IMG/VR virus record: IMGVR_UViG_3300010348_000820
Coordinates: 4,820 to 68,819 of that record
Strand: one strand, 5' to 3'
Length of the DNA: 64,000 nucleotides
Source of the DNA: a virus
Lineage: Duplodnaviria > Caudoviricetes
The notes below the pieces were generated by a model that saw only the letters and a list, made by a program, of their open reading frames with translations, did not search any database and was not told the origin of the DNA. Positions 2,031 to 39,638 of this stretch are shown piece after piece (position 1 is the stretch's first letter; each line of letters starts with the position of its first letter). Both the position numbers and the translations under genes were made by a program.

Positions 2031-4961
2031 TTATACTTGATAACTATTTATCAAAATGCCCTTACTAAATACGAAAGCTCTTGTTGAAGCGCCAGTCGTA
2101 ACTTGATATGTAGCAGTAAGTCCAGCACTAGTCCCAGCATATAAATTGCTATATACATAAAAATTTTGGGCAGAAGAAGTTCCGCTACTTGTAAAATTAG
2201 AATAAACTCTATCTGTAACCTGAAGAGTGCCATCTATATAAGCACTATCATTAATTCTTGTATAACCACCTATGGTAGTTGTTCCAACAACCTCTAAATT
2301 ATTATTTAGTTTAGTATTTCCAGTTAGATTAATACCATTGCCACCATACATAGTTATTATTGCAGAGTCTGCTCGAATTTGAGCACCACCCCCATTAATA
2401 TTAACCCCCGTATTTGCCGTAAGATATATCATATTGGTCACATCTAATTTAATGTTGGCGCCAGTACCGCTTCCATATATAACCCCGCCCATAATTCTAT
2501 CTCCGCTCATCGTGCCATAAGTTAACTTACCAGCATTTAACCCTGAACCAATTTGAGAATCAGCAAGAGTACCTGATATTTTACTCGCAATTAAAGAACT
2601 TATTTGATCACTTGTCAAATATCCATCTATTTTATTAGCATAAATTGTCCCACCAAAAGTTGCACTTGTAGGCGTAATTGTTAATAGCCCAAGCTTAATA
2701 TAGCCATCACTACGGATATAATTACCATGAGTATCTTGCAATCTATCTGAAAGAATAGCCCAACCACCAATTGAGCCAGAAGAGGCAATAATTTGTCCTG
2801 TCATAGTTACATTACCAGAAGGATCTAAATAAAATTGATCAGTCCAAGTACCACCTATATTCTTTTGTATTTTTATACCGTTATTAGGATCTAATAGTAT
2901 CTTGTTATTGCCAGAAGATGTTGCTAATGATAATGTGGCATTAGTCAATGTCGCCCCACTACTATCAAATAAGAATGAGTTGTTTTGGTTAGTCATATAA
3001 AGATTATTACCAATCAACATTTTACCAACTAAAGCATCACCAACTACTCCATAATATTTAGTGCCATTTACATCTACTTCGCCTAATGCTAAACTGGACG
3101 TTTGCCATCCATCTTTGGTAAAACAAATAATACCATTATTCATCCACAATTGTTTGGGATCATATATAGCAGAAGAACTTATCGTGCTTGCACTTATAAG
3201 GTTTCTTACTCTAATACCTGTTTGATCTATAAGAACATTTTGTGTACTACCGCTTACAACATTATTGCGAGCTGTATCTAAACTTGATATTATAAAACTG
3301 CTTACATCATCTTGATAGTTTTTAGTCCAGCTTGACCATTGCTCAGAATTAAAACTTGTTGAAATAGATGAAGTATTATTACTATTTAAAAGATCACTGA
3401 GTTGGAAATTGCTATTATCTATTCTTAACCTGTTTGAAAATGTAAGCGAGAAATCTGACGGGTTATCATAATTCATGGATATTTCTAATAATGCAGGATA
3501 TACCATAGTATGACTGCCAGACGATGATACATAATCGGATTCATAAATATTAGACTCTCCGCCAATGTCAAGCGTAACTATTGTTCCTAATTCCAACTGA
3601 TTAGTAAATGGGAGATATTCTTTTAATGAAGTAAAGTTTACAGCATTTAATGAAAATTCATAGCGTGGTTGTGCTATTTTTTTAAGCACTTTTACTGCTT
3701 GATCATATAATCCTTGTGCCTGATCTTGAATTTCAGAATTTGTCATAATAGATGTTTGTATAAAGTTTTCATTTGTATATGTACTTCCAAACATAAAATT
3801 AGATAATTCTTCTTGAGCTTCCGTTGAAAAATTAGTATCAAAACTTAATGCTGTATTTATATCAGTAAGATCGGAAGTTGTTGTAGTTATTTGAGATTGA
3901 GTCAGTAGTATTGCCGTGTTTTTAGCATCTATTTCTAATTGTTTTGAAGCAAGTTGGCTATTTATATCAGTCAAGTCTAATCCTTGAGATATTCTTGCTA
4001 ATTTGACATTTTCTAATGATTTATACTCGCTTTGAAGATCCGTCAATTCAGATTGCTGAGTCAACAATATTTCATTATAATTTTGTAAAGTCGTAAGTAA
4101 AGAAGCATAATTACTTTGATTAGATTCTATTAGGGCTTCCCAATTATTCAAAGATGTTATTAATGACGCCGACATCCAGTTTGTATTTTCAAAATATGAG
4201 AAGTCATATATATTATCTGTACCTAACGGATTAACTGAATTTATTGAAAGATTCCCACCACCAGTTACAGTCAAACAAGTAACTAATTCATCTGTAATTT
4301 CTTTTACTTCTGTTTCTTTTACTAAATTATCATAAGATATAAATATATCTGAATCAGTTGTTGCATTTTCTATTGTATAAGCTGATATAGTTTTATTCAA
4401 TGTATCAAACTTAAATATGCATTGATATGTTTCAGAAATATCATTTGTTAAGAAAGAATATAACGTAGTATCATCAATATCAAATGTTCGATATAATATA
4501 GCTAATTCTGTATCAACTGTTCCAATTGTCCATCCAGGAATATATCCTATTAATGTATTTAATAACGCTGGAGAGGCAGATGTACCTAATGCATCATAAA
4601 ACTGATATGTACCTTCAAAAGATGTTACTTTTTTATAATTCATTATTGATTCTAAAGATTGGCATTTTACTTCTTTATACTTTTTAATGCCATCCCCATA
4701 CTCATTTATTTCTGTTATAAGAAAGCACATAATCCCATCTATTAGCACTAAACGTTTTGATTGTATCAATGAATAATAAGGAGTTTCAACACCATTAATC
4801 ATATAAGGCGCAATAAATTCAAGAGAAGATAATGCATTAAATCTATAAGTAACTTTTCTATCATATACTGTTCCAAGCACCATAAGTTGATCACCTGATG
4901 GATTGCATAGAATCAAAGTTACATCATCTGCCTGATCATAATAATTAAAATTGACTAACAA
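2031..4961 (-). CDS. Tail spike / tail-associated hub protein (Tal-like)
   Basis: 976 aa immediately downstream of Dit-like gene; N-terminal prophage-tail-like region, central coiled coil, beta-rich Gly/Ser-rich C-terminus. Confidence 0.75.
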   Translation of the reverse strand: MLVNFNYYDQADDVTLILCNPSGDQLMVLGTVYDRKVTYRFNALSSLEFIAPYMINGVETPYYSLIQSKRLVLIDGIMCFLITEINEYGDGIKKYKEVKCQSLESIMNYKKVTSFEGTYQFYDALGTSASPALLNTLIGYIPGWTIGTVDTELAILYRTFDIDDTTLYSFLTNDISETYQCIFKFDTLNKTISAYTIENATTDSDIFISYDNLVKETEVKEITDELVTCLTVTGGGNLSINSVNPLGTDNIYDFSYFENTNWMSASLITSLNNWEALIESNQSNYASLLTTLQNYNEILLTQQSELTDLQSEYKSLENVKLARISQGLDLTDINSQLASKQLEIDAKNTAILLTQSQITTTTSDLTDINTALSFDTNFSTEAQEELSNFMFGSTYTNENFIQTSIMTNSEIQDQAQGLYDQAVKVLKKIAQPRYEFSLNAVNFTSLKEYLPFTNQLELGTIVTLDIGGESNIYESDYVSSSGSHTMVYPALLEISMNYDNPSDFSLTFSNRLRIDNSNFQLSDLLNSNNTSSISTSFNSEQWSSWTKNYQDDVSSFIISSLDTARNNVVSGSTQNVLIDQTGIRVRNLISASTISSSAIYDPKQLWMNNGIICFTKDGWQTSSLALGEVDVNGTKYYGVVGDALVGKMLIGNNLYMTNQNNSFLFDSSGATLTNATLSLATSSGNNKILLDPNNGIKIQKNIGGTWTDQFYLDPSGNVTMTGQIIASSGSIGGWAILSDRLQDTHGNYIRSDGYIKLGLLTITPTSATFGGTIYANKIDGYLTSDQISSLIASKISGTLADSQIGSGLNAGKLTYGTMSGDRIMGGVIYGSGTGANIKLDVTNMIYLTANTGVNINGGGAQIRADSAIITMYGGNGINLTGNTKLNNNLEVVGTTTIGGYTRINDSAYIDGTLQVTDRVYSNFTSSGTSSAQNFYVYSNLYAGTSAGLTATYQVTTGASTRAFVFSKGILINSYQV

Positions 4962-32846: not shown

Positions 32847-32881
32847 TTTAAGAAATCAATATTATACATATTAATTTCTTG

Positions 32882-32952
32882 AGCCGATGAGAGGAATCGA
32901 ACCTCTAACCATTTTTTACAAAAAAATCATATTACCTTTATACTACATCGGC
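32882..32952 (-). tRNA. tRNA-Thr(UGU)
   Basis: Acceptor GCCGATG/CATCGGC, D arm GTAT/ATAT, anticodon arm ATTTT-TT TGT AA-AAAAT, T arm AGAGG-TTCGATT-CCTCT, U73; CCA not encoded. Confidence 0.8.
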
Positions 32953-34260: not shown

Positions 34261-35295
34261 TTATACTAAATCATCAGGCTTTGTACTTTCTAAGTGCTGT
34301 TTTAAATTTTCAAGTTCAGACCAAACTTTATCTTTTGCTTCAACATCGTCATATAAAAACACTAAATTTACGTCTGACCACCCGAACAATTCTTTAATTA
34401 ATTCCGGTTGTATTTTCTTTCTTCCTAAAAAGCTAACAGAATAATGACGAAGAGAATGACAATAAAAAGGTTTATCTAAATAGGATTGAACTTTATTTAC
34501 CCATCCTCGTGCTGTTGATTCAGAAGCAGGATCTCCGTTAGATTTTATAAAAATGGAATCATGATCTTTCCCGTTTTCTTTCAGAATTTTTTCTCTTATA
34601 AGAAGCCATTTCTGATATTTGTCCCAAAATATATCTTTGATGATATATTTCTTTAACTGCTTCCCAAATTTTCCGCGTCCTTTCGTCCTAATAGCTTTTG
34701 TAGTTTCTAAAAATATTCCTTCATACGCAGTATTGTTCTCATCAATAAGATTTAAAGTAAACCTTAAAAGTTCAGAAAATCTACATCCAGAAGCAATTGC
34801 TAAAGATAACCAACATACTATTTGAGTTTCTTCATCTTTTTCTAAATCAGTAATAAGTTTATTTATTTCTTCATCTGAGAAAACTGTTTTCTCGCGAACA
34901 AATTCTTTAGGCATCGGCTCTACTGCTTTTAGTATAATATTACGAAAATTTGGATATTCATCATCTAACATTCGTTCTATAAAATTAGACATAGAGCTTA
35001 AACAAGATTTCAATCTTGCATATCTCGCACTACCAAAATGCAATACTTCAGTTGCATAAATAAAAAATTCACTAACTTGCAACTTCTTAATATCTACAAA
35101 AAAAGTGTTATTATTATAAAGTAAATTCCACGTATAAAAGATCAGAATATCTGATTTATAATTTTCAATCGTCTTTTCGCTACTTCTCGATCCTTTATCC
35201 CTTAAGAATAAATTCATCAACTTTATATTTTCAGGATTTATTTGTTTTGTCAATTCGGGGTTCGTAATCTTTACTTTAATTGTTTTTCTCGGCAT
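34261..35295 (-). CDS. Tyrosine recombinase/integrase family protein
   Basis: SGCRFSEL (R), KGRG (K), HSLRH (HxxR), FGWSD (W), and LYDD (Y): full catalytic set appears present. Confidence 0.85.
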   Translation of the reverse strand: MPRKTIKVKITNPELTKQINPENIKLMNLFLRDKGSRSSEKTIENYKSDILIFYTWNLLYNNNTFFVDIKKLQVSEFFIYATEVLHFGSARYARLKSCLSSMSNFIERMLDDEYPNFRNIILKAVEPMPKEFVREKTVFSDEEINKLITDLEKDEETQIVCWLSLAIASGCRFSELLRFTLNLIDENNTAYEGIFLETTKAIRTKGRGKFGKQLKKYIIKDIFWDKYQKWLLIREKILKENGKDHDSIFIKSNGDPASESTARGWVNKVQSYLDKPFYCHSLRHYSVSFLGRKKIQPELIKELFGWSDVNLVFLYDDVEAKDKVWSELENLKQHLESTKPDDLV

Positions 35296-35326: not shown

Positions 35327-35710
35327 TTATTTTTCTCTTTTGAAGTCTTCTTCTTCCCAATCAACTTTCTCTTCTTCGTATGATTCTAAATCTTCCTCGT
35401 CATCCTCGTAATTACCTACTTTGCCTTCTTTATAAATTCTTCGTAAGTTTTTACTCGGCTTAATTGTTAATCGCTTTTTCCCCTCAGCTAATTCATACGC
35501 CTTTGTGCCAACATTATAATACCGCGAAGATTTCATAATAGTACCATCGATATGAAAAAGTCCATAGTAATCAATTCGCTTTCCTTGTGCAACAAGTTCT
35601 TTAATGATTTGGTCAAATTCATCAAGAATTTCTTTAACATCTTTTTTAGTAAAAGAAGCTCTTTCAGCAATTTCTTTGATCACATACCTTTTATCGTATT
35701 TAATTTCCAC
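35327..35710 (-). CDS. hup: HU/IHF-like DNA-binding protein with acidic C-terminal tail
   Basis: IKEIAERASFTKKDVKEILD and G.F..  YYNVGTK..LTIKPSKNL HU pattern; position after RNAP as in SPbeta. Confidence 0.85.
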   Translation of the reverse strand: MEIKYDKRYVIKEIAERASFTKKDVKEILDEFDQIIKELVAQGKRIDYYGLFHIDGTIMKSSRYYNVGTKAYELAEGKKRLTIKPSKNLRRIYKEGKVGNYEDDEEDLESYEEEKVDWEEEDFKREK

Positions 35711-35804: not shown

Positions 35805-36554
35805 CTATATTTTACTTTTTTCAATATGTTTTTTTACATTTTTGTTTACATCTTCTAATCTTTTTTTCTTATAGCACTCTTGGCACAAATTGTGCATTTT
35901 AGATATATTATCTATTGTCCTTCCACAAGAATCGCAGGTAATGACATAATGATCAACAATATTATCTAAACTTTGTATTGTTATAACAACTTCAGGATCA
36001 TCACAAGCAATATTTATTTCAAAATAACCATTAGGGAAAGTAGTAATAAATCCACTTTGCTCTAAGTTATAAAGTAAAACTTTTCTTTTATATTTCTCAA
36101 CATTAATTTTAGCCATTTTCAAAATCTTCAAAAAGTTATATGAATATACATAATATTTATTGTTTTTACTAATTTTATTTTTTGGGATATAATTACTTTT
36201 TAAATATTTAGATATAACTAACATTACGAATAATATTTTTTGTAAATGGTGATTCTTTAGCATTTTTATAGAATCAATTTCTTTTTTATTAATATTGATT
36301 TCTATATTCATTTTAGTTTTATGTTTTTTAGAAGACCTTATAGCATTAGATATTTTTTTTCTTGATAAAATTTCATTAAATCCTACTTGGCTTTTAGTAC
36401 AAAATTCATTCAATATATCTTTTATTTCTCTATCATTTTTCCCTTCCTCATCTCTGAAGTACTTTGCTAAAATAAACAATTCTTCAAAGTTCATAAAAGA
36501 AGTAAAACCATTTTCTAATATTTCTTCTGCTCGTTTTTTTTCATAAAATATCAT
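35805..36554 (-). CDS. Basic hypothetical protein with C-terminal zinc finger
   Basis: 249 aa, CDSC/CQEC; directly downstream of RNAP gene. Confidence 0.55.
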   Translation of the reverse strand: MIFYEKKRAEEILENGFTSFMNFEELFILAKYFRDEEGKNDREIKDILNEFCTKSQVGFNEILSRKKISNAIRSSKKHKTKMNIEININKKEIDSIKMLKNHHLQKILFVMLVISKYLKSNYIPKNKISKNNKYYVYSYNFLKILKMAKINVEKYKRKVLLYNLEQSGFITTFPNGYFEINIACDDPEVVITIQSLDNIVDHYVITCDSCGRTIDNISKMHNLCQECYKKKRLEDVNKNVKKHIEKSKI

Positions 36555-36580: not shown

Positions 36581-39500
36581 TTAATAAAACTCCTCGTTAT
36601 ATTCATTTGCTATATATATTTTCTTTTTCGAATATTTTTTATCAAGATAATTAATTGCACCATCTTTATCTAAGAATGGTATTTGAATATCTTCCTGCTT
36701 ATTTGCTTTTATATTTTCAATCAATCCTTCACCAAACACTAACCACGCAAAAGACTTATTATCGCTCGGATGTAATTCGTAGCATATAACTACTGCTAAA
36801 GAAGCTAATTCTTCCAAATTAGGAGTAATTTTAAGTGCTTCTTGTTTTATATATTTGCAATATTGTTCAAGCGTTTTAAATCTTACTTCACCTGAATCCG
36901 CATCAATAGAATCGAAGTTTCTTTTACCTGATTTATACTTTTTATATACGGCATAAAGTTTATCTAATTTATCTTTGTCAACTTCAAAATCTTTTGACTT
37001 TAATAATTTTACAGTAGATTCTGTATTCTTACGCCTTACGCCTTGCCTAATTTCTTTTACTTTACTTTGCATATATTTAGATATATTATTAGTTGTACAG
37101 CTTGATTCAATTAAAGGATTATATTTATTGAATTTATTAATAGCTTCAATTTGTTCTTCAGATAATTCTGATTCATCTAAATTCAAAAGCTCTTCTAAAA
37201 ATAAGCAAAATTTAGCTTGAGAAAATGTATCATAATTTTCATAATGGCGTCTATATTCTTTAGAATAATTACTATAAACATTCGTCATAAATTTAGGACG
37301 TTTTGAAATTAGAATTCTATTATTGAATTCTGCTTTAGATTTTTCTTCCTCGCTCATATCATCAGTAATTTTATTCCAATTAGTCCAATGAGAAGGAATA
37401 GGTCTAATTACCAAACCTTTTGTAGCATCTATAATAGCGCCCTGCTCTCTACGACACTGCTTTAATCTTCTGATAATTTCTTTATATTCTGCACTTTCTG
37501 GATCAAACATTGGAAGCATAGAGTACATTGTTGTACTAAGATTCGTTAAAAATCCTACCTTAGTATTAAATCCGTTTATATCTGATTTATATAATTCTGA
37601 CTCAATTATCTTGCACTCTGGTGCTTTTTTAGTTTCATACATTACTGGCAATCCACCATATGCACCATTGATTATATCCTTTTGGTCTGTTAGGCATACA
37701 ATGTCTCCATCGTACCTTTATGTTAGCTTATAGTTACCTATAAGAGCAGAGCACATCATTATCCTGTTTTTATAAAAAAGTTAAAATAAACTATAAAATA
37801 AAAATAGGGTATTCGGCGCTTCTCAAGCATGAATTTCACATGCAAGATACATTCTTTCGAATTGCTCGTTACACTTTCCTTATTACAAGGCTTAGCACGG
37901 TATTGTCCTTGCTTACACAGTCGGAGTTCCACCGTTAGCAGATATTTTTATCCACACCTCAGATTTCTGAGTTCACCGAATTTTCATCTAAATGTTACCA
38001 TTTAGAGCGACTATTTAACTAATCGGCACCACCTAACACTGCCATATCCATTCCGTTTGCAGGGAATATACAGCAACAATTCAGATATTCATACCAATGT
38101 TCCATATTATCATCAGTTTTTAGATTCATCACATCAACTTCAGATCTCCAAACTAAAGGAGATCTCATCCCAGCAATCTTATTTATTCCTTTATCAAGCC
38201 AATATCTGCAATAATATTCTCCTCTTTCTAATAACCCTTTAACTGGTAAACTAAATATATGGTCAAGCATTGCGATTGGATCTGCAACCATAAACGTATA
38301 ATTGCCATTAACAATAAGATTTCCAATATAAGATTCTTTTATTTTTTTCTTTATAGAGTTTTGAATATGAGTCTGGATATACGGATCATAGATAAGCTCA
38401 TTATTTAATATAATCGCTTTTGTTACATTATCGCCAATCTTATCAAATATATATTCATCATATTCTTCATCACATAAATCTCCTAAAAGATAAAGCAAAG
38501 TATAATCTAAAGTATTTGTGCTTATATTTTTGAAATATTCAACTGTTTTTTTGCATAGAGATTTTATAGCTTTTTCATCTAAGTTTAATGCTTGTATAAA
38601 TTGATAATTTAAAGTTGTGTGATTTTTTTCTTGTTTCGGAGCATATCGTGTTACTCCCCACCCGATATTATTCTGTTTGCTATTTTTTACATACGATTTT
38701 ATATTATCGAAGGCGTTCCATAATTTAAATTGAGAAGCTGATAAAATTACATCCATATCTCGAATATTTATAGTATCCCCGTATATATCTTCAATAATAT
38801 GCTTACCAATGTAATCAGAATATTCTACAAAATCAACAACAACCAATAACCCTTTTATAAAATTAGACCTTACAATAAAACAACTTGGGATATAATCTAA
38901 TTCTAAATCCTCAGCCCATTGCTTAGCCATTCTTGGACTGATCAATCCTTGCCCGTCAAACAAATTAAATTTTATTTCCTTTTCAACTTCTTCTATTTTA
39001 TCATCACCACTCGGATCTTCTTCTACCCATTCTACTTTTTCTATACGTTTTATTTCACAGTCTTTTACAACTGTAAATAATGGTGTAGTTACTGGTAATG
39101 CAGTTGATGATGCTAAAGCAAAATAAGCATTGAACTTTGCGGGTACTATCGGAATATCTTTTCTTCCATTATTTAAAGTTTCTTTTGTTTGATGTTCTAT
39201 TTCAGAGTCAATTAATAGAACATTATTCCGCCTTGCTTGCCCAGCGCTACACATTAGTCTTACATATTTCTTGCCGTTTACAAATAATCCTTCATTGATG
39301 ATTTTTACATAATGGCGATTATCCTCAACAACCAAACTAATAACTTCTGGAACAAACAATATTGCATCAATTTCTTTTTCTATCTCATATAGTCTTAAAG
39401 GATTATCTAATTTCTTTTTTGCTATTTTCTTTTGTTCTAATAATTCATTTAACCGATTTTCATAATCAGTTCGATTCTTAATTTGTCGAATCGTAGTTAG

Positions 39501-39638
39501 TAATTGGGAATTACCTATTGATATTAATTCCCCATTCTTTCTTGCATCATTTATATTTAATTGTATATTTAATTTATCCTGGATTATCCTTTGACTACTC
39601 AATTTGTATATATAAAATTGCTGTAGTTTTTTTGCCAT
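36581..39638 (-). CDS. yonO: YonO-like single-subunit (RdRP-like) DNA-dependent RNA polymerase, two exons (39638-38022 and 37714-36581), 916 aa after splicing
   Basis: CSAGQAR, FDGQGLISP, QFIQAL, MRSP motifs; splicing restores catalytic GGAD|YDGD (DxDGD); exon 2 is in frame with the 356 aa ORF. Confidence 0.9.
37715..38021 (-). ncRNA. Group I intron (subgroup IA-like) in RNA polymerase gene
   Basis: Exon ends GAU, intron begins UAG and ends G; P1 CGAU/GUCG with U.G; P2 CUAAAUG-GUAA-CAUUUAG; P3 AUUCGG/CCGAAU; P7 GAGCA/UGCUC; extra stems between P7 and P3; P9 CUUAUAG-GUAA-CUAUAAG. Confidence 0.9.

Follow-up and report, generated by a model that had tools for sequence, protein, structure and literature searches.

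A group I intron within the DxDGD catalytic motif of a YonO-type phage RNA polymerase gene

Introns in phage RNA polymerase (RNAP) genes have been described in jumbo phages, the only cases that we found in the literature. The beta-subunit RNAP intron of PhiPA3 encodes the HNH protein gp210 (PMC11620839), and gp273/274 of 201phi2-1 are "separated by a mobile intron" (PMC2919709). Here we describe a 307-nucleotide (nt) insert in a YonO-type polymerase gene on a 64,000-nt stretch of viral DNA (hereafter the window; positions 4,820 to 68,819 of IMG/VR record IMGVR_UViG_3300010348_000820). The insert is, by its predicted fold, a group I intron, and very probably a resident, self-splicing, IA-like one whose endonuclease gene was lost or never present, placed after the first Asp codon (GAU) of the DxDGD motif in the RNAP gene of a ~130-kb SPbeta/c-st-like phage. 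As in the jumbo phages, a mobile group I intron occupies a conserved catalytic-centre region of a gene for a two-barrel RNAP. The window host differs in being a single-chain enzyme of the YonO/RNA-dependent RNA polymerase (RdRP) type, the insertion lies in the beta'-like DxDGD triad itself, and the window copy is without an endonuclease. The initial annotation of this DNA, made from the sequence alone, knew of no intron in a YonO-type gene. Our limited literature search, whose scope did not extend to the c-st genome paper, likewise found no paper describing one, but introns beside a conserved Asp in multisubunit phage RNAPs are published, and cases in YonO-type genes lie unannotated in public records.

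For the RNA itself, the systems to compare are the phage IA introns of T4 (td, nrdB and sunY), the SPO1 and Bastille DNA polymerase genes, Twort and SPbeta bnrdE/bnrdF (PMC11878797, PMC8270828). The window intron resembles these in its P1-P9 core with P7.1/P7.2, its U.G pair at the 5' splice site and its terminal G, and also in an early in-frame stop, a location in a conserved motif of an essential gene and an endonuclease open reading frame (ORF) that is optional and housed in a loop. It differs in having two extra hairpins between the 5' strand of P3 and P4, a P7 of GAGCA/UGCUC rather than GACUA/UAGUC, and sub-threshold similarity to the Rfam model. A survey of Bastillevirinae introns found phage IA introns to be more diverse than the current subgroups (PMC11878797). 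For the host gene, the comparison is with SPbeta YonO (PMC5467207), which shares the Pfam RdRP domain, the DxDGD motif, ~26% identity over ~400 aa and the arrangement of an HU gene followed by a late structural cluster. YonO, however, is uninterrupted and 839 aa long, whereas the window clade has a 916-aa protein and a separate 249-aa partner ORF.

The window genes of interest lie on the minus strand, and positions are those of the whole stretch. As the initial annotation had noticed, the polymerase frame is broken in two, the ORF list giving 539 aa at 39638..38019, ending in GGAD followed by TAG, and 356 aa at 37651..36581, read from an internal TTG. Exon 1 (38022..39638; 539 codons by the ORF list and translation) ends GGT GCC GAT, with its last base, U in the RNA, at 38022. 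Exon 2 (36581..37714; 377 codons plus a stop codon at 36581-36583) opens at 37714 with TAC GAT GGA GAC and encodes YDGDIVC. Excising 38021..37715, that is, 307 nt that follow a U and end in G, fuses the frames into 539+377 = 916 codons with GGAD|YDGD at the joint, and the boundaries and protein length first assigned to this excision are all right. The catalytic DxDGD loop of the window gene is formed only across the splice junction (D|YDGD), for which the predicted ligated-exon sequence is GGTGCCGAT|TACGATGGAGAC.

By its profile and homology matches, the host gene is a YonO/cellular-RdRP-type two-barrel RNAP, as had been proposed. Exon 1 matches the Pfam RdRP family PF05183 at 67.7 bits (E 1e-18; cut-off 23.8) and, by tblastn, SPbeta YonO in the SPBc2 records (26% identity over residues 113-516, E 1e-17). 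Further tblastn matches to SPbeta-like and other YonO-family phage records reach E 2e-21 and include homologues in c-st, BUCT082, Enterocloster and Thomasclavelia phages. The family profile, built from 34 homologues, gives a weak match to solved eukaryotic RdRPs, with structures of the RDR2/QDE-1 type (E 7e-4). Other searches were less informative: phmmer of exon 1 against the PDB gave no match, BLASTP of exon 2 against YonO gave faint matches only, and megablast of the polymerase gene against phage records returned nothing useful.

The junction was compared with uninterrupted homologues, an alignment that the initial annotation had put forward as a check and that bore out its reading. Two phages, Bacillus phage BUCT082 and Enterocloster phage PMBT24, carry the sequences that match exon 1 and exon 2 back to back, with zero gap. 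About 100 of the top 120 database homologues of exon 1 are 890-940 aa long and carry D-x-D-G-D at residues ~505-555, and ~20 of the 120 break off precisely after the first Asp (…GG[A/S]D or …HAD). When 34 homologues are aligned, the final exon 1 residue, Asp539, never varies and is followed by D-G-D, the DxDGD motif as a whole being invariant or near-invariant. Close relatives without an intron are 63-68% identical to the window polymerase.

The intron (37715..38021) starts with UAG, an in-frame stop. In a narrow 751-nt scan, the Rfam group I model RF00028 aligns over its full length (model positions 1-253) to 38031..37727, at 33.3 bits and E 1.2e-6. P1 (38008..38025) pairs exon CGAU and intron UA (38025..38020) with the guide UAGUCG (38013..38008), with U.G at the splice site, and P2 (37988..38005) is closed by a GUAA loop. 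The 5' strand of P3, UUCGGUG (37974..37980), has its partner CGCCGAA at 37818..37812, and the two extra hairpins fill the interval between P3 and P4 (37971..37958 and 37955..37938). The P4-P5-P6 domain (37873..37935; P4 ACGGUG/UACCGU) is placed by the Rfam alignment, by RNAalifold and by covariation. P7 is a pseudoknot between GAGCA (37863..37867) and UGCUC (37753..37749). P7.1 and P7.2 (37823..37861) form a subgroup IA-type insertion, and we place the intron in subgroup IA because they lie between P7 and the 3' strand of P3. P8 (37763..37808) is a long A+U-rich hairpin seen in the sequence and in the minimum-free-energy fold, and every relative has a hairpin of variable length here. P9 (37727..37744), with a GUAA loop, is supported by the Rfam alignment and covariation and is followed by 12 nt and then the terminal G at 37715. 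The single-sequence minimum-free-energy fold of the window intron recovers most of the helices. The intron holds no endonuclease ORF, as had been stated, its sole internal ORF (57 aa) having no Pfam match. The signature motifs of the intron family occur in one copy only in the window, and blastn of the intron against phage records returned nothing useful.

This fold is supported by covariation. We aligned seven ORF-less homologous introns that have the core of the window intron and were drawn from metagenome and IMG/VR contigs. RNAalifold, unaided, returned P1, P2, P3, P4, P5, P6, P7.2 and two further hairpins, with compensatory change in 32 of 50 pairs. The P7 pseudoknot, P7.1 and P9 were then added, giving 13 helices and 65 pairs, and controls were made by sliding the partners by 1-3 columns and by 500 shuffles. 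Across the seven introns, 94.5% of cells are paired, as against 35-44% in the slid controls, and 41 of the 65 pairs change on both sides, as against 6-13; none of the 500 shuffles attained any observed measure. P3, P7, P7.2 and each extra hairpin are 100% paired, with compensatory change in three pairs of P3, two of P7, six of seven in P7.2 and four in each of the extra hairpins, and P2 shows it in six of its seven pairs. For P7, L015 shares the GAGCA/UGCUC of the window, L006 has GAUCA/UGAUC and the remaining introns show the usual GACUA/UAGUC, a compensated series that makes the unusual P7 of the window a compensated variant. Covariation extends into the exon, where base -4, a synonymous third position, changes with the P1 guide (C-G, A-U, G-C). 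U.G stands at the 5' splice site in six of the seven introns, and every intron copy compared has G before exon 2.

The helices first drawn by hand (P1 with U.G, P2 and P9 with GUAA loops, P3 UUCGGUG/CGCCGAA and P7 GAGCA/UGCUC) are present and supported by this covariation, which, with the full-length RF00028 alignment, upholds the assignment to group I. The splice boundaries are, on these comparisons, exact, and the finding is far beyond chance: an independent covariance model aligns end to end, and excision restores an invariant Asp-DGD. Several points weigh against a functional, self-splicing intron and should be set beside this evidence. The RF00028 score of 33.3 is below the gathering threshold of 50, and scans of the whole 64-kb window, in both gathering and E-value modes, left the intron unreported, the match being lost to filters. 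The Infernal search that had been proposed as a check therefore gave a full-length alignment in the narrow scan but neither a score above threshold nor a hit in the whole window. P7.1 is weaker than the other helices, with 70% pairing. Neither P10 nor P9.0, which set the 3' splice site, was identified, and the 3' site is assigned from protein homology and the terminal G. Splicing itself we infer from the sequence.

To address mobility and inheritance, we compared the window with other loci interrupted at the same site. In an IMG/VR survey of loci with both exons, 9 of 65 are interrupted after the first Asp (site 1), with inserts of 259-1082 nt, in line with the ~17% share interrupted there in the protein database; ~85% of homologues, close relatives included, are intron-less. 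Longer inserts at this site carry endonuclease ORFs of the HNH_3+NUMOD4 (L014), NUMOD3 (L008) and LAGLIDADG (L011, L013) types. In L014, the window's closest relative (protein 93% identical), the 5' stretch of the intron is the same and an HNH ORF comes in after ~105 nt; L015 (81% identical) has an ORF-less copy of 306 nt. The codon before the intron is GAT in every intron-bearing allele and GAT or GAC in intact genes, and a stop codon directly starts 12 of 19 site-1 introns. Between the window and its relatives, intron identities of 83, 79, 70 and 72% accompany flanking-exon identities of 83/80, 78/75, 73/72 and 72/72%, respectively. This parallel suggests that gene and ORF-less intron have long been passed on together, with selection acting on the fold of the intron. 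One insert, L016:5115-5373, is a mosaic relative to L007:4118-4384 and L006:4115-4383, its core near-identical to L007 and its P7', P9 and 3' end of the window/L006 type, which points to recombination between intron lineages at one site.

These observations fit a mechanism in which the pre-mRNA would fold and an external guanosine would attack after the U of GAU, at the U.G pair of P1, the terminal G then directing ligation of the exons. The ligated message would encode a 916-aa single-chain two-barrel RNAP which, if it acts as YonO does, would transcribe the late structural genes downstream. On RNA that is still unspliced, ribosomes would halt at the first intron codon, UAG, and so be kept out of the ribozyme, and an early in-frame stop of this arrangement reportedly helps folding in the td intron of T4. 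The prediction that unspliced RNA gives a dead enzyme is sound, as translation would stop at once at the UAG, without two of the three catalytic Asp residues. Arrival by homing is suggested because same-site relatives hold HNH, NUMOD3-type, LAGLIDADG or GIY-YIG genes. The intron would then persist because of splicing rather than regulation, and long-term residence under selection for splicing is indicated because intron and exon identities run in parallel and both exons are full-length open frames.

The best-surviving alternative, which we nevertheless consider improbable, is that the intron acts as a regulatory gate, with splicing efficiency, through GTP, Mg2+, folding or translation state, setting the level of active RNAP and timing late transcription. 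The initial annotation had favored such a gate, and there are reasons to entertain it: the intron sits in an enzyme that probably drives late genes, it begins with an immediate in-frame stop as do most site-1 introns, and an ORF-less intron has been kept through long divergence. However, the intron is dispensable in most homologues, close ones included, and the copies related to it are ordinary mobile introns that carry endonuclease genes of four families. Retention can be accounted for by the need for precise splicing, imprecise loss being lethal. No sensor-like element is evident, and nothing in the sequence indicates regulated splicing; the gating proposal is not supported.

Less probable again is a decayed, non-splicing relic in a polymerase pseudogene of a defective phage. 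The missing endonuclease gene and the sub-threshold Rfam score would fit decay, and a contig only ~52% complete leaves room for a non-viable phage. Yet the window intron retains all 81 columns that are invariant over the seven aligned introns, along with every core helix; both exons are intact, full-length frames 65-93% identical to homologues; and the divergence of the intron keeps pace with that of the exons, with compensatory changes. That the two ORFs are naturally separate subunits flanking an unremoved intergenic spacer of 307 nt is hardly credible. In its favor, the two halves are listed as distinct proteins in PHROGs and in public annotations, and the 249-aa partner is a genuinely separate gene. 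Against it, no start codon stands at YDGD and the first in-frame start of exon 2 lies 21 codons on, past the catalytic residues, the spacer shows a covarying ribozyme fold, the break would leave one triad Asp on one chain and two on the other, and intact homologues are contiguous.

A resident group I intron thus remains the preferred reading, and the surroundings of the polymerase gene bear on what its product does. The source contig is an IMG/VR sequence of 68.8 kb. Directly downstream of the polymerase, at 35805..36554 (minus strand), lies the 249-aa gene, a partner ORF present in all relatives by synteny. Its product has no Pfam or PHROG match, and its Cys-x2-Cys...Cys-x2-Cys end is faintly like YonO residues 799-821 (BLASTP, E 0.4). 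With this faint match, and with CST177, its counterpart in c-st, annotated "YonO homolog, C-ter only," the YonO C-terminus may be a separate protein in the window clade. An HU-like DNA-binding protein gene (35327..35710, minus strand; phrog_379) follows, and the same-strand order continues with a recombinase, an exonuclease, terminase, portal, tape measure and tail genes, matching the SPbeta layout of yonO-yonN and then the late cluster (PMC8270828). By analogy, the window polymerase would transcribe the phage late genes, a role suggested by synteny, with the RNAP gene heading the HU, terminase, portal and tail block. Also of note, the recombinase, a tyrosine-recombinase/integrase-like gene (34261-35295, minus strand; phrog_1, E 2e-27), sits between HU and the packaging genes, inside this putative late block, and a lone phage tRNA-Thr(UGU) occurs in the window at 32881-32952 (minus strand).

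YonO-type genes are interrupted at other positions as well. Clostridium phage c-st (AP008983; L001:4172-4488) has a 317-nt intron two codons further on, after the second motif Asp (DMD|GD), with the halves annotated as CST179 (conserved phage-related protein) and CST178 (hypothetical protein). RF00028 scores this intron at 25.4 bits in a narrow scan and misses it in a three-locus scan. The human fecal phage MT835481 (L003 ~2087-3033) carries a second-Asp-site intron with an HNH_3+NUMOD4 ORF and a 3' end like that of site-1 introns, and four protein clusters end …SDFD. In pig-gut ENA contigs (L104:3157-3500 and L105), an intron of the window's family follows the third Asp (DFDGD|IVF), with P1 formed by exon GGAGAU and guide GUCUCC. 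Each of the three DxDGD Asp codons can therefore precede an intron, and the introns of all three sites follow GAU. Further afield, the genuine Spbetavirus phages Goe11 (MT601272; L082:4495-5799) and Goe14 (OL580764; L083) have yonO split after Asp625 by a ~1.3-kb insert, which shares P1-P3, the two extra hairpins and the 3' core with the window's family and carries a GIY-YIG/NUMOD3 ORF. Like the window gene, those of Goe11, Goe14 and c-st are YonO-type genes split by a group I intron, the Goe11 insert resembling the window intron by sequence motifs, and they differ in insertion site and, for Goe11 and Goe14, in the GIY-YIG ORF. The Goe11 and Goe14 annotations read yonO_1, hypothetical protein and yonO_2, with no intron annotated. 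In a gut-phage subclade, the frame breaks again ~94 codons after the motif (L036, L037, L043, L053, L067, L076) and, as a second further break, ~88 codons before it (L068, L070, L073, L076); these two conserved breaks are probably additional introns.

Another variant of the motif, found in other phages and not in the window, has the form GAC-C-GGN GAY. The second Asp codon is separated from the Gly codon by an extra C, which leaves [F/Y]-D in one frame and G-D-I-V… in the +1 frame. Loci with the extra C include intron-less ones (L036:5148-5160, L043:5148-5160 and L076:5144-5156), ones with a site-1 intron (L067:1716-1728 and L070/L073:6165-6177), ones with an intron after the third Asp (L104/L105:3144-3156) and L106 (~3141-3153), and the C occurs in five codon contexts. 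Fifteen protein clusters at 90% identity, from Logan and ENA, end …DxDR…, and the three IMG/VR records with the extra C are of gut phages and are 100%, 100% (terminal repeats) and 90% complete. Systematic base-calling error was rejected as the source, since intact GACGGA/GACGGT alleles occur in the same sample and the allele is also in Logan/ENA assemblies. A single inherited clade was likewise rejected, as L036 is 96% identical to L037, whose motif is intact. Such pairs differ mainly within ~120 nt upstream and 50 nt downstream of the motif, the pattern that conversion tracts at a homing site would leave. The zero-frame CGG made by the extra C is near-unique in these loci, where CGG is used 0.5 times per 1000 codons versus 34 for AGA. 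Where a site-1 intron is present, no in-frame start lies near the junction from which a separate C-terminal protein could be made, so that a +1 shift after the Asp would be the simplest route to an enzyme. A search of three complete genomes for a tRNA with an unusual anticodon loop was negative. Recoding in the +1 frame and an endonuclease-resistant allele are both candidate explanations. We suggest, tentatively and as a possibility we hold with some doubt, that the 15 bases of DxDGD may be a contested homing hotspot, with one intron family after each Asp codon, at least four endonuclease families and conversion-tract mosaics, and that the widespread extra-C allele might yield a full-length enzyme only by +1 recoding at CGG and may persist by destroying the endonuclease/intron target. 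If truly recoded, this allele would be a rare bacterial or phage +1 frameshift inside an active site.

The window intron is real and unannotated; it adds one more case of a phage genetic parasite that is already familiar and that recurs widely in YonO-type genes. Gene callers split these polymerases into two "hypothetical proteins," as with CST179/CST178, yonO_1/yonO_2 and two PHROG families. PHROGs (exon 1 matches phrog_25339/8308) holds an N half (558 aa) and a C half (354 aa) as separate families beside a full-length one, which indicates that split annotation of YonO-type genes is common. Surveys of YonO-type enzymes consequently miscount them and miss the catalytic motif. As the Rfam model for group I introns, run with its normal thresholds, fails to report this family, censuses of phage introns also undercount it, and the seven-sequence intron alignment could seed a better covariance model. 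For the phages themselves, the endonuclease-bearing copies at the window's site could mediate competition during co-infection among SPbeta/c-st-like phages, like the PhiPA3/PhiKZ case.

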